From the NCBI RefSeq assembly GCF_003334405.1, contig NZ_QOWM01000004.1: 64,000 nucleotides of DNA. One strand, written 5' to 3'. The notes below the pieces were generated by a model. It searched no databases. It had not been told where the DNA came from and saw only the letters and a list, made by a program, of their open reading frames with translations. A program made the translations under genes and the position numbers. How positions within the stretch are numbered: the first letter of the stretch is position 1; each line of letters begins with the position of its first letter. Origin of the DNA: Escherichia coli. Its GTDB lineage: Bacteria > Pseudomonadota > Gammaproteobacteria > Enterobacterales > Enterobacteriaceae. Below, one piece after another: positions 13,295 to 18,537 of the stretch.

Positions 13295-13310
13295 AACCAC
13301 CTCTCATTAA

Positions 13311-13323
13311 CTTTCATTCGAAA
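13311..13323 (-). promoter_or_regulatory. Motif copy A: TTTCGAATGAAAG (extended TTTCGAATGAAAGTTA) in the ybiU 5' region
   Basis: Plus strand reads CTTTCATTCGAAA; exact 13-mer shared with 14332-14344 and 17780-17792, 16-mer shared with the latter. Confidence 0.35.
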
Positions 13324-13401
13324 CCATTCTGATTTGCATGTGACAATATAAGTTATAAATAAGTTAATGCAAGTTTAATGATTTGATGTGATGTACAGGA
13401 T

Positions 13402-13445: not shown

Positions 13446-14261
13446 TCAGCTGTTAAAAGGGGATGTGTTATCCAGCACCGCCTGAATCACATTCAGCGCG
13501 CCTTCATGATTATTATCATCGGTAGCGTAACGGGCGATTTGTTTAATGTTTTCCGCAGCATTGCCCATCGCAAAGGAATAACGCGCCATTTTCAGCATCT
13601 CCGCATCGTTACCGCTGTCGCCAATCGCTACCACATTTTGCGGTGACAGATCCCAGCGTTTCAGTAACCGCGAAATACCGTTTGCTTTATGTAGACCGGG
13701 AATAATCAGGTCGATAAAGCCAAAACCACTGGTAACGGGTTTCATAATGCCATCGAGCGCTACGTGCAGTTTGTCGATCACTAACGGGATTTGTTCATCC
13801 GGCAGGTTGAGCGAAAACTTGAACAGTACGTCGTCAATCTCCTGATAATCTTTTACAGGTTTCAGGCGATGGTAGTGTTTTGCCATCAGTGCGACAAATG
13901 CTTCGGGGGCATTTTCGCTGACATATGCACTTTGCAGACCGCAGGCGACAAAATTGAGTTGCTTGTCTTTTAGCAACTCGCCAATAACAATCCGCGATTC
14001 ATGTCGGGTCAGTTCGCCGTGGAACAACTGCTTGCCATGTTCGTAAACCAGTGCGCCGTTTTCCGCGACAAAAGAGATCTCATCCTTTAGCTCAGGAAAG
14101 AATGAAATAAGCTGGTAATACTGATTACCGCTGGCAACAACGAACTTAATGCCGCGCTTTTTCAGTTCCTGATATTGCGCCATAAAACGTGGTTGGTTGT
14201 ACGTTTTGGCGTCGTTAAGAAAAGTACCGTCCATGTCTGTGACGATAACTTTTACGCTCAT
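13446..14261 (-). CDS. ybiV: HAD-family (Cof-type) sugar phosphatase YbiV
   Basis: ORF track 13446..14261 (-), 271 aa, [17 protein letters not shown]... with DxDGT HAD motif I; paralogue of ybjI in this window. Confidence 0.92.
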
Positions 14262-14331
14262 AGGTGTGCTCCTGGCTCGAAAATGAAACCGTAACAGTGT
14301 AATAACAATGTGACGCAGAGCACAAATTATA

Positions 14332-14344
14332 TTTCGAATGAAAG
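14332..14344 (+). promoter_or_regulatory. Motif copy B: TTTCGAATGAAAG between ybiW stop and ybiV start
   Basis: Exact 13-mer read directly; followed by ATTGATGATGTG, resembling the sequence after copy C. Confidence 0.35.
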
Positions 14345-14406
14345 TAAGGATGAAATTGATGATGTGAATGATTTAGCCCGGCGACGACGCCGCCGGGCCG
14401 AGGAGA

Positions 14407-16839
14407 TTACAGCATATGTTCAGTACGGGCGATGATATCGTCCTGAGCGTCTGGAGAGAGCGCGGTGAAGAACGCGGAATAGCCCGCGACACGCACTACC
14501 AGATCGCGATACTGATCGGGATGTTTTTTCGCATCCAGCAGCGTTTCGCGGGAAACGATGTTGTACTGAATATGCCAGCCTTTATGCACTTCAAAGAAGG
14601 TACGCAGCAGGATCATCAGTTTCTGCTTGTCAGATTCGTTCTCCAGCGTTGCCGGATTCAGTTTCTGGTTGAGCAACACGCCGCCGAGAATCGCTGCCGT
14701 AGGCAGTTTACCCACTGAGCCAATGACCGCAGTAGGGCCAAGATGGTCAGTACCGGAGGCCGGGCTTGCGCCTTCTGCCAGCGGGGTGTGGGCTTTACGC
14801 CCGTCCGGTGTTGCCATAGTCTGCGCGCCAAACGGTACGTTAGCGGAGATTGATGACGTACCCGCGTAATAGTTGCCGCCAACCGGACCACGACCGTAGC
14901 GCGGATTATGGTACTGTTTCAGTTCGTCGATATAGGTCTGATAAGCGCGAGCCAGCAGCGTATCGACAGTATCATCGTCGTTGCCGTACTTCGGCGCACC
15001 GTTAATCAGCCGCTGACGCAGCTGCTCGTGAGTCAGGCCGTCGAAGTCATCTGCCAGTGCGGCAGCAAGCTGTTGCTGACCAATCGCACCTTGTTCAAAC
15101 ACCAGTTTCTTCACTGCCGCCAGGCTGTTGCCGAGGTTGGCAATGCCGACCTGCAGGCCAGAAACCCAGTCATATTTCGCGCCGCCTTGCTTGATACTTT
15201 TCGCTCGCTCAATACAGTCATCCACCAGCGCCGAGCAGAGAATATCGTGCACGTTCTCTTCCAGCATGGTGTCGACGACATATTCGATTTCGATTGATTT
15301 GCGGGTGTAGTAACGGATTTGCGTATCCCACGCGTCCATCACTTCATCGAAGTTGTTGAAGTTACCTGCCGACAACGCTTTTTCTTGTGGCAGGAACACT
15401 TTGCCGCTGGTGGCATCATGCCCGCCTTCCAGCGCCGCCAGCATCACGCGGGCGAAGTTGATAAAGCTCATGCCGGTACAGCGATAGCCCCATTTGCCAC
15501 CGACGGCGGTTTCTATACAACCAATCGCTGCGTAGTCATAAGCGTCCTGCGGTTCAATACCGAGTTTAATAAATTCCGGGATCACGATTTCGTCGTTGTT
15601 GAACGCCGGCATCCCGAAGCCGCAACGGATCACCTGTACGCAGGCGTCGAGGAAATCGTTGCTCATTCCTGCATGGTAACGCACGCTGAGGTTAGGCTGA
15701 GTGGAACGCAGGCGACCGCAGGATTCGAGGATCGCGTAAGAGAGTGGATTCACCGCGTCCATTGGTTGACCATCAACCAGATTTTGCCCGCCAATAGTGA
15801 CGTTCTGATACAGCGGACTTCCCGCAGAGGCTTTTGAGTGTGAGCCGGAGCGGATCTTGTTCACTTCCAGCAGTTTCAGCCAGCAGCTATGCAGCATCTC
15901 GATGGCGTGTTCGCGATCCAGCGTCTGGTTGAGTTCAACGTCGCGGCGATAGTACGGGTAGAGATACTGGTCCATACGACCAAACGATACTGAGTGACCG
16001 TTAGATTCGATCTGCAAAATCAACTGGATGAAGTAACACAGTTGCAGCGCCTGCCAGAAAGTCTGCGGCGGCTGGTGGGCGATAAGATCGCAGTTTTCTG
16101 CCATCGCCAGCAGTTCATCGCGACGGCTTTCGCGGGTTTCGGTCGCGGCCATTTCACGCGCCAGGGCAGCGAAACGTTCAATGTGTTCACTGACTGCCAC
16201 CAGCACGATATCAATCGCTTTCAGGAATTGCTCACCGTGTAAATCTTCCAGCACCGTCAGGTTGATGCGCGAGCGACGTTCCGCTACTTTCTCGCGCAGA
16301 CCATCAAGCCCTTTTTCCAGCAGCAGCGGGAAATTCACCGCCAGGTGCGCATCGCCGGAGGTCATATTGCCTTCCGCTTTAATGATTCCGGTCGCCAGCA
16401 GACCTTTTTGCTCATCGGTAAACATGCCGTAGCAGCGATCCTGTACGGTCTGACCGCGCCACCACGGGCACACTTCATGCAGAACGCGTTTGTTCTCTTC
16501 GCTCACCGCAAAGCCAGCACCGGGACGATCTGCCAGATCATCAATCTCTTTTTCGATCCACGAGACAGTATATTCCGGGAAGATCGGCGCGGCGCGAACT
16601 TCGCTTGCCTGGTTGCCAATGATCAACTCATCGTGTTTGATCCAGATGGTGCGATTCGCCAGGTGATGCGCCAGTGCCAGCGCGCGACGTACCGGGATCG
16701 GCTTATCGAGATGTTGTTGATACATCTCGGTATAGTGCTGCGCGCGCTCGGTACAGACTGGCGGTTTCACAATATGCACCAGCGCATTTTTGTGCGCTTT
16801 AATGCGGTCGCTGAGCGTGTCCAGTTTCAGTGTGGTCAT
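14407..16839 (-). CDS. ybiW: Glycyl-radical enzyme YbiW (pyruvate formate-lyase family, substrate unassigned here)
   Basis: ORF track 14407..16839 (-), 810 aa; C-terminal glycyl-radical fingerprint RVAGYSAFF; PFL-like length. Confidence 0.92.
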   Translation of the reverse strand: MTTLKLDTLSDRIKAHKNALVHIVKPPVCTERAQHYTEMYQQHLDKPIPVRRALALAHHLANRTIWIKHDELIIGNQASEVRAAPIFPEYTVSWIEKEIDDLADRPGAGFAVSEENKRVLHEVCPWWRGQTVQDRCYGMFTDEQKGLLATGIIKAEGNMTSGDAHLAVNFPLLLEKGLDGLREKVAERRSRINLTVLEDLHGEQFLKAIDIVLVAVSEHIERFAALAREMAATETRESRRDELLAMAENCDLIAHQPPQTFWQALQLCYFIQLILQIESNGHSVSFGRMDQYLYPYYRRDVELNQTLDREHAIEMLHSCWLKLLEVNKIRSGSHSKASAGSPLYQNVTIGGQNLVDGQPMDAVNPLSYAILESCGRLRSTQPNLSVRYHAGMSNDFLDACVQVIRCGFGMPAFNNDEIVIPEFIKLGIEPQDAYDYAAIGCIETAVGGKWGYRCTGMSFINFARVMLAALEGGHDATSGKVFLPQEKALSAGNFNNFDEVMDAWDTQIRYYTRKSIEIEYVVDTMLEENVHDILCSALVDDCIERAKSIKQGGAKYDWVSGLQVGIANLGNSLAAVKKLVFEQGAIGQQQLAAALADDFDGLTHEQLRQRLINGAPKYGNDDDTVDTLLARAYQTYIDELKQYHNPRYGRGPVGGNYYAGTSSISANVPFGAQTMATPDGRKAHTPLAEGASPASGTDHLGPTAVIGSVGKLPTAAILGGVLLNQKLNPATLENESDKQKLMILLRTFFEVHKGWHIQYNIVSRETLLDAKKHPDQYRDLVVRVAGYSAFFTALSPDAQDDIIARTEHML

Positions 16840-16844
16840 GGTTG

Positions 16845-17744
16845 TTATCCTCGTAAGGTCGCGGTTAACCCTTTCTGGCAGGCATACTGCTGGGCAAAGT
16901 CGAGCAGTTCTGGCGCATCAAGCGGTTTTTCCGGGGCGTCATAGGGCAGATTAAGTAAGTGATATTTGTTGATGCCCAGCGTGTGGTAGGGCAGAAAATG
17001 AATTTCGCCAACGTGCAGCTCGTCGGCGGCAAAATCGGTAATGGCTTTTACAGAGGTTTCGTCGGCATTAAAGCCCTGAATCAGCGGCACGCGGATAATG
17101 ATTTTTTTGCCCGCTGCGGCGAGTTTTTTCAGGTTATCCAGCACTCTGGCGGCGTTACCGTCGGTCCACTGTTTAAACGGCGCGTCGGCAACGTGTTTTA
17201 AATCGGCAAGAAACAGATCGATATAGGGCAGAGAAGGGGCGATATATTTCCACGGCACATGCAGACAGGTTTCTACCGCAGTATGAATGCCTGCCTCGTG
17301 GCTGGCTTGCAGTAGCGCCATCGCCATTTCCGGCTGCATAAAGGGCTCACCACCCGAAAGCGTTAAACCGCCGCCGCTGCGATCGTAAAACGGTTTATCG
17401 CGCAGAACGGTCGTCATGATCTCCTCAACGCTTTTCACTTCACCACACACGGTTAATGCCTGTGTCGGACAGCAGTCGGTTAACGCCGTCAGATGCTCCG
17501 GGGTTAACTTTTCCCGATGAATAAGCAAACCATTCAGCGCGCGCTCAATCACTTCCGGCGCGGCCTTAGCGCACAGCTCGCAGCCTTCCAGACACAGTCG
17601 TGCGTCATACAGCAGATCCTGCGTGCGGGCGCGGCTTTCCGGGTTCTGACACCAGCGGCAGCCCAGCGAACAGCCTTTAAGAAATACGACCGTGCGGATA
17701 CCGGGGCCATCATGGGTCGAGTAGCGCTGAATATTGAAAATCAT
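16845..17744 (-). CDS. ybiY: Glycyl-radical enzyme activating enzyme YbiY (radical SAM)
   Basis: ORF track 16845..17771 (-); CxxxCxxC radical-SAM motif (CSLGCRWC) plus extra Cys clusters; start placed at the ATG at 17742-17744 (MIFNIQRY...), which has an AGAGG SD; the upstream in-frame ATG at 17771 is a possible alternative. Confidence 0.85.
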
Positions 17745-17779
17745 AGTTGCCTCTCTATTTCGTTCAAGCATTAAAATAC

Positions 17780-17792
17780 TTTCGAATGAAAG
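17780..17792 (+). promoter_or_regulatory. Motif copy C: TTTCGAATGAAAG (16-mer TTTCGAATGAAAGTTA) in the ybiY/fsaA divergent region
   Basis: Exact 13-mer; with its 5' C it forms the inverted repeat CTTTC-N4-GAAAG. Confidence 0.35.
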
Positions 17793-17797
17793 TTAGA

Positions 17798-17811
17798 TTG
17801 ATGTGCGTCAA
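17798..17811. promoter_or_regulatory. FNR-like site TTGAT-N4-GTCAA (9/10 match to TTGAT-N4-ATCAA) in the ybiY/fsaA divergent region
   Basis: TTGATGTGCGTCAA read directly; centre lies about 41 bp upstream of a plausible ybiY transcription start if ybiY begins at 17744. Confidence 0.3.
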
Positions 17812-17874
17812 CTGTTCAGAGAGTTTTCCCGTGATAGTCTACATTCAGACAAAAAGTACATTTTGAGGATGGTT

Positions 17875-18537
17875 ATGGAACTGTATCTGGATACTTCAGA
17901 CGTTGTTGCGGTGAAGGCGCTGTCACGTATTTTTCCGCTGGCGGGTGTGACCACTAACCCAAGCATTATCGCCGCGGGTAAAAAACCGCTGGATGTTGTG
18001 CTTCCGCAACTTCATGAAGCGATGGGCGGTCAGGGGCGTCTGTTTGCCCAGGTAATGGCTACCACTGCCGAAGGGATGGTTAATGACGCGCTTAAGCTGC
18101 GTTCTATTATTGCGGATATCGTGGTGAAAGTTCCGGTGACCGCCGAGGGGCTGGCAGCTATTAAGATGTTAAAAGCGGAAGGGATTCCGACGCTGGGAAC
18201 CGCGGTATATGGCGCAGCACAAGGGCTGCTGTCGGCGCTGGCAGGTGCGGAATATGTTGCGCCTTACGTTAATCGTATTGATGCTCAGGGCGGTAGCGGC
18301 ATTCAGACTGTGACCGACTTACACCAGTTATTGAAAATGCATGCGCCGCAGGCGAAAGTGCTGGCAGCGAGTTTCAAAACCCCGCGTCAGGCGCTGGACT
18401 GCTTACTGGCAGGATGTGAATCAATTACTCTGCCACTGGATGTGGCACAACAGATGATTAGCTATCCGGCGGTTGATGCCGCTGTGGCGAAGTTTGAGCA
18501 GGACTGGCAGGGAGCGTTTGGCAGAACGTCGATTTAA
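17875..18537 (+). CDS. fsaA: Fructose-6-phosphate aldolase 1
   Basis: Known N-terminus [16 protein letters not shown] at the ATG at 17875, 220 aa, transaldolase-like; track ORF 17803..18537 starts upstream. Confidence 0.92.

Follow-up and report, generated by a model that had tools for sequence, protein, structure and literature searches.

The 130-bp region between the divergent genes ybiY (minus strand) and fsaA (plus strand) of Escherichia coli contains an FNR-like box at positions 17798-17811, which raises the question of whether FNR governs the flanking genes, from which transcription starts, and in combination with which other regulator. The sequence analysed here, referred to as the window, is a stretch of 64 kb that can be assigned to E. 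coli, as it differs from K-12 MG1655 at only 3 of the 10,001 bases compared (window positions 13965, 16290 and 18625, the sole three over 10 kb), and its ybiY-fsaA intergenic region is exactly the K-12 sequence. K-12 coordinates (NC_000913.3) correspond to window positions plus 845767, and NC_000913.2 coordinates to those of NC_000913.3 minus 778.

The ybiY gene (16845-17744, minus strand) encodes a glycyl-radical enzyme activase of 299 amino acids according to K-12 and PGAP annotation and the TIGR02494 profile, and is co-transcribed with ybiW (14407-16839, minus strand; open reading frame and annotation), which encodes a glycyl-radical enzyme of 810 amino acids. YbiW is reported to cleave 1,5-anhydroglucitol-6-phosphate to yield 1-deoxyfructose-6-phosphate in an oxygen-sensitive glycyl-radical reaction (Ma et al., 2024, JACS 146:26187, as cited in PMC12441222). 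The fsaA gene lies at 17875-18537 on the plus strand, as placed by annotation and translation. FsaA is said to cleave the product of YbiW, and ybiYW together with fsaA reportedly constitute an oxygen-sensitive route of 1,5-anhydroglucitol utilisation in E. coli and other gut bacteria.

The box, TTGATGTGCGTCAA, is centred at 17804.5 and matches the FNR consensus TTGAT-N4-ATCAA at 9 of 10 positions, departing from it only where the right half-site opens with G instead of A. Matches of this quality number four in the window, where 2.76 would be expected, and a count of four was reached in 30 of 100 shuffled sequences. Because simple consensus counting does not separate TTGATGTGCGTCAA from chance, a symmetric weight matrix was adopted, built from the 62 other sites under FNR ChIP-seq peaks (Myers et al., 2013, Table S6), with TTGATGTGCGTCAA itself excluded. 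With this matrix, TTGATGTGCGTCAA obtained the highest score of the 64-kb window (15.8 bits, compared with 12.4 for the runner-up) and outscored 63% of the 62 ChIP-bound training sites; the chance expectation in simulated sequence was 0.275 per 64 kb, or ~0.0006 in the 130-bp intergenic region. CRP prefers GTGA where FNR half-sites carry TTGA, so that the core bases separate FNR sites from CRP sites, and both half-sites of the box (TTGA and TCAA) are of the FNR type. The second-best matrix match, TTGATAAAGCTCAT, lies within ybiW at 15458-15471 and is absent among the ChIP-bound sites examined.

Occupancy of this site by FNR has been published. An FNR ChIP-seq peak at 862807 (NC_000913.2), labelled ybiY/fsaA, is listed in Table S5 of Myers et al. 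(2013; PMC3688515) and was called by MOSAiCS, NCIS and CisGenome; the exact 14-mer appears in their Table S6 with a PatSer score of 14.54 and an ln p of -13.06 (threshold -10.75), and Table S9 gives ybiY as the estimated target and names neither a further regulator nor a start site. The peak was uncalled in the ChIP-chip data of the same study and in an earlier ChIP-chip study (PMC3688515). The FNR-like site proposed in an earlier note on this DNA from its 9/10 match is confirmed by the presence of the same 14-mer under the ChIP-seq peak: it is a genuine FNR site, already published and not new here. Four more FNR ChIP peaks of Myers et al. (2013) fall in the window at approximately 10109, 27212, 32462 and 47207 (converted coordinates), corresponding to ybiS/ybiT, yliE, rimO/bssR and ybjN; their matrix matches are weak (ln p -5.5 to -7.9), and bssR is also reduced in a Shigella flexneri delta-fnr strain.

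The evolutionary constraint on the box was examined at 80 ybiY loci, one per species of Enterobacteriaceae, with YbiY identities from 97% down to 75%, giving 81 promoters with that of the window. In every one of them the best match to the FNR matrix within 200 bp upstream is the box, its centre lying 60-65 bp before the 299-aa ATG. All eight positions of the core TTGA-N6-TCAA are 100% conserved (81/81), while the inner positions of the box alternate between T and C and between A and G, and the most frequent base at the four spacer positions reaches just 33-75%. The alignment runs without gaps from the box until past the predicted transcription start, and the variable distance to the ATG is due to insertions and deletions in the leader. 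The box is also kept in 17/17 loci at which fsaA does not adjoin ybiY (among them those of Klebsiella, Raoultella, Salmonella arizonae and Salmonella diarizonae), and it is a perfect FNR consensus in 11 of these 17 compared with 1 of the 63 with adjacent fsaA, a pattern which argues that the box belongs to ybiY first. The boxes nearer consensus where fsaA is missing could reflect phylogeny or a constraint imposed by sharing of the site. The conservation of the box and of its spacing to the -10 element across orthologues is an addition of the present analysis, and an incremental one.

The predicted -10 hexamer of the ybiY promoter (ybiYp) is TTTAAT at 17770-17775 on the minus strand, each position of which is 95-100% conserved. 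The exact hexamer is present in 70 of the 81 promoters and one-base variants occupy the same offset in 10 more; in 80/81 the first base of the hexamer and the box centre are exactly 29.5 bp apart. With TTTAAT taken as -12 to -7, transcription is predicted to start at A17763 (minus strand; K-12 863530), 7 nt after the hexamer and an A in 81/81 sequences, and the box would be located at -41.5, a geometry suggestive of class II FNR promoters. The earlier suggestion of a start about 41 bp from the box centre on the minus strand thus agrees with the position predicted from the conserved -10. A -35 hexamer is absent, the bases from -35 to -30 reading AATCTA, and a sigma-70 promoter scan found no -35/-10 pair at the position of the box and -10; ybiYp should therefore need an activator. 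The only match of that scan, TTGAAC-16-TATGAT at 17767-17740, was rejected because its start would fall inside the coding sequence. A -35 role for TTGACG, one half of the box, was likewise discarded, since the sequence 17 bp further downstream, CATTCG, does not resemble a -10 hexamer. Another hexamer on the same strand, TAACTT (17795-17790), is 88-100% conserved and can be read as an alternative -10.

The choice between two in-frame starts of YbiY can be made on grounds independent of transcription. The 299-aa start is the one annotated in K-12 (NP_415345.2) and in PGAP genomes, and 80/80 orthologues align over residues 1-299, beginning at this ATG. The upstream in-frame ATG at 17769-17771 (minus strand), which gives a 308-aa reading, is found in 4 of 6 Escherichia sequences (the window and three others) and in none of 75 from other genera; it is missing from E. 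albertii and one Escherichia sp., and in most genera a stop codon occurs 2-12 codons upstream. This ATG overlaps the -10 hexamer, consisting of its final AT followed by a G that is present in 5 of 81 sequences, and would occupy positions -8 to -6 of the predicted start. The alignment with TIGR02494 (E = 7.7e-111) takes in profile positions 1-293 and residues 11-301 of the longer, 308-aa form; it thus opens at residue 2 of the 299-aa protein and leaves the nine extra residues outside the profile. A Shine-Dalgarno sequence, AGAGG (17750-17754, minus strand), precedes the ATG at 17744 by 5 nt, and the alignment shows conservation of a purine-rich G block there. Annotation, orthologues, the distribution of the upstream ATG, TIGR02494 and AGAGG all agree, and the conclusion holds without the start-site argument: the 308-aa ATG is not a real start, and YbiY is a protein of 299 amino acids, as the accepted annotation already has it. 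The earlier note, which had favoured the 299-aa start with its AGAGG and, given a transcription start about 41 bp from the box centre, excluded the 308-aa form, is borne out by the annotation, the orthologues and the protein profile. What is gained is confirmation on independent grounds and an explanation of how the spurious ATG arises.

On the opposite side of the box, a predicted extended -10 element for fsaA, TGATAGTCT, lies at 17832-17840 on the plus strand. The pattern TGnTAnnnT begins at offset 28 relative to the box centre in 57 of the 63 loci where fsaA is the neighbour, and at none of the other offsets; of the 17 loci without fsaA, one has the pattern. The extended -10 stands at a fixed 30.5 bp from the centre of the box in these 57 loci. 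From the position of this element, fsaA transcription is predicted to start at 17847 (plus strand; K-12 863614), with the box then at -42.5. Since the separation of the box and the fsaA ATG ranges from 65.5 to 77.5, it is the spacing of the box to the -10 that is constrained, and the fixed offset implies that a single FNR site may be flanked by two divergent class II geometries. Judged from sequence, the box probably serves both promoters where fsaA is present. A GGTTTT block (AGTTTT in E. coli) on the fsaA side of the box at 17822-17827 (offsets 18-23), between the box and the fsaA -10, is conserved in fsaA-adjacent loci only.

Published expression data bear on FNR and on anaerobic control in several ways. 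Table S9 of Myers et al. (2013; PMC3688515) places the ybiY peak with those lacking an FNR-dependent change in expression during anaerobic growth in glucose minimal medium. In S. flexneri M90T grown without oxygen, ybiY decreased in the delta-fnr strain relative to the wild type (log2FC -2.49, FRT-seq); the RNA-seq column for this gene is blank in a table restricted to significant values, making the change significant by one of two methods. On the FNR dependence of ybiY/ybiW expression, the absence of which the earlier note had named as a refutation, support comes from the S. flexneri result for ybiY and from the anaerobic-only activity of the E. coli promoter (below), and not from the E. coli data in glucose medium. 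YbiW protein was increased in Shigella dysenteriae in vivo. The supplement of an E. coli delta-fnr RNA-seq study (mBio 2023) contains none of these genes, and a paper naming both fsaA and fnr was set aside as a link because fnr is mentioned there solely as part of a strain genotype.

A Reg-Seq preprint (10.1101/2025.05.13.653802) found ybiYp to be active solely in anaerobic E. coli cultures. Relative to a start predicted by computation, it described an activator-like footprint near -20, for which no candidate factor was given, and a pull-down of YciT on ybiYp DNA at approximately -5. Its authors credited the anaerobic activity to relief of YciT repression; their text does not mention FNR and their motif scan did not name it. 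FNR is a candidate for the activator footprint that was left without an assigned factor, a link absent from the preprint. Taken with the promoter geometry and the S. flexneri result, we infer that FNR is an activator of ybiYW in E. coli.

A possible target of YciT, a repressor of the DeoR type, lies between the box and the -10 element, where the palindrome ACTTTCATTCGAAAGT (17778-17793, minus strand) spans positions -15 to -30 of the predicted start. This candidate operator (O1) is identical in 66 of 81 orthologous promoters. A motif search revealed a second copy, ACTTTCATTCGAAATA, upstream of ybiV in the ybiW-ybiV intergenic region (14330-14345, minus strand), and a third, ACTTTCATTCGAAACC, 16-31 nt before the ybiU ATG (13294, minus strand) at 13310-13325 (plus strand). 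With up to two mismatches, the 16-mer occurs in the window solely upstream of ybiY, ybiV and ybiU, a count reached by 0 of 100 shuffled sequences. A degenerate operator-like block may also surround +1 at 17757-17769 (minus strand), as the alignment suggests; it reads GCTTGAACGAAAT in E. coli and CTTTATACGAAAG or CTTCATACGCAAG outside E. coli, and resembles O1 minus one base. In a published study of a delta-yciT strain, transcripts rose by log2 values of 7.7 for ybiY, 7.0 for ybiU, 3.5 for ybiW and 1.8 for fsaA, and the text of that paper adds that ybiV was differentially expressed. Given the palindrome at ybiY, ybiV and ybiU and the derepression of the region in delta-yciT, the 16-bp palindrome is probably the YciT operator. 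The proposed operator triplet is an addition of the present analysis.

The placement of YciT on these palindromes has to be reconciled with ChIP-exo data. Two YciT ChIP-exo intervals, converted from NC_000913.2, lie at 17884-17911, inside the 5' end of fsaA, and at 13466-13499, inside the 3' end of ybiV; both are 110-160 bp from the palindromes on the high-coordinate side, and palindromes within the YciT ChIP-exo intervals yielded no common motif. According to the Reg-Seq study (10.1101/2025.05.13.653802), its own YciT site lies ~100 bp downstream of the one that Gao et al. (2021) had located by ChIP-exo. Measured from the interval at 17884-17911, this offset would bring the Reg-Seq YciT site onto or near the palindrome and the -20 footprint onto or near the FNR box, an alignment held with moderate confidence. 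YciT would shut the promoter in glucose medium, which would explain how FNR could be bound without a change in expression in the study of Myers et al. (2013).

Other readings of these data differ in what they make of the box and of the start site. FNR might occupy the box without regulatory output, the anaerobic activity of ybiYW then being a matter of YciT relief or of another activator; Myers et al. (2013) saw no FNR-dependent expression change, and the Reg-Seq authors invoked YciT relief while their motif scan did not name FNR. This reading is nevertheless unlikely, given that neither the FNR core nor the distance separating it from the -10 varies over the 81 promoters (one departing from the exact distance) while neighbouring bases have diverged, that a promoter with no -35 hexamer needs an activator, that ybiY falls by 2.49 log2 units in S. 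flexneri delta-fnr, and that repression by YciT in glucose, the loss of which raises ybiY by 7.7 log2 units, can mask FNR dependence. A start upstream of 17771, for example near 17783 with TAACTT as its -10, would shift the box to about -21, where it would work in another way, and leave the 308-aa ATG on the mRNA. The conservation of TAACTT fits such a start, as do the Reg-Seq footprints at approximately -5 and -20, which would then match the palindrome and the box. An FNR dimer at -21 would, however, obstruct RNA polymerase and would not leave a footprint of the activator kind; TAACTT lies within the palindrome block and is hence conserved for another reason; TTTAAT is the better -10 (5/6) and stands at the canonical class II distance; and, wherever transcription starts, 77 of the 81 sequences lack the upstream ATG, which also falls outside the family profile. 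A start upstream of 17771 is accordingly judged quite improbable.

The possibility that the box acts on fsaA only, with ybiYW driven independently, draws on the conserved extended -10, whose offset from the box is fixed, and on the rise of fsaA by 1.8 log2 units in delta-yciT. It is rendered very improbable by the 17 loci without fsaA, all of which retain the box with its spacing to the ybiY -10 unchanged and 11 of which have a perfect box, by the choice of ybiY as estimated target by Myers et al. (2013), and by the promoters themselves, since ybiYp lacks a -35 whereas the extended -10 of fsaA relies less on an activator. That the box is a chance match or a CRP site finds some footing in the frequency of 9/10 matches to the simple consensus, which are as common in the window as in shuffled sequence. 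Its first rank by matrix with ~0.0006 matches expected in the intergenic region, its published ChIP-seq occupancy, a core conserved in 81/81 promoters, and half-sites that are both of the FNR-type TTGA leave this reading effectively refuted by results already cited.

The model preferred here combines an FNR operator, class II activation of ybiYW, repression by YciT, a 299-aa YbiY and a probable boost of fsaA, and is given a probability of approximately 0.75. Under anoxia, dimeric [4Fe-4S]-FNR would bind the 14-mer between ybiYW and fsaA and, from its position at -41.5 over the absent -35 element, would recruit RNA polymerase to TTTAAT, resulting in class II activation of ybiYW. The transcript from A17763 would possess a 19-nt leader carrying AGAGG followed by the ATG at 17744, from which a YbiY of 299 amino acids follows, and the 308-aa ATG, formed by the end of the -10 and an Escherichia-only G, would be left upstream of the start. 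Expression of the operon would need both anoxia, acting through FNR, and relief of YciT repression. The same FNR dimer, at approximately -42.5 relative to the fsaA start, probably boosts fsaA, the aldolase reported to act on the YbiW product.

A more specific version of this model, in which one FNR dimer between divergent class II promoters and the YciT operators together form an AND gate and FNR is the source of the Reg-Seq footprint, has roughly even odds. If true, the gate (absence of oxygen plus an inducer) would cover the whole radical pathway for 1,5-anhydroglucitol-6-phosphate, and the wiring of FNR with a specific repressor would explain the silence of the operon in standard FNR transcriptomics and indicate a route to its induction. 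The mirrored -10 element of fsaA and the link to the Reg-Seq activator are further additions of this analysis, incremental and partly inferred. Practical gains are modest and include two start sites and three operators predicted to the base.

The arrangement resembles class II FNR promoters with FNR near -41.5, such as narG, nirB, dmsA and pflB P6, in having a near-consensus box over an absent -35, a -10 element 29.5 bp from the box centre, an anaerobic function and FNR occupancy. It differs from them in that the ybiYp start is predicted, FNR dependence in E. coli is proposed, and activity is apparently masked by a repressor in standard medium. Divergent promoter pairs can share one site for an activator of the CRP/FNR family, and the ybiY-fsaA region shares with such pairs a single dimer site and outward -10 elements at 41.5 and 42.5 bp; it differs in that action of FNR on fsaA is proposed from conserved geometry. 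As with operators of the DeoR family, the palindrome precedes three members of a single regulon and either overlaps the promoter core or follows it closely, but here the operator is a candidate and the YciT ChIP-exo peaks are offset by 110-160 bp. A precedent is offered by the FNR-bound sites without an FNR-dependent change in expression that Myers et al. (2013) grouped in Categories 3-5, as TTGATGTGCGTCAA is itself in their Table S9; for Category 4, repression by Fur was proposed to mask the effect of FNR (PMC3688515). Compared with that listing, the YciT data and the operator motif now supply a candidate co-regulator for the ybiY site.
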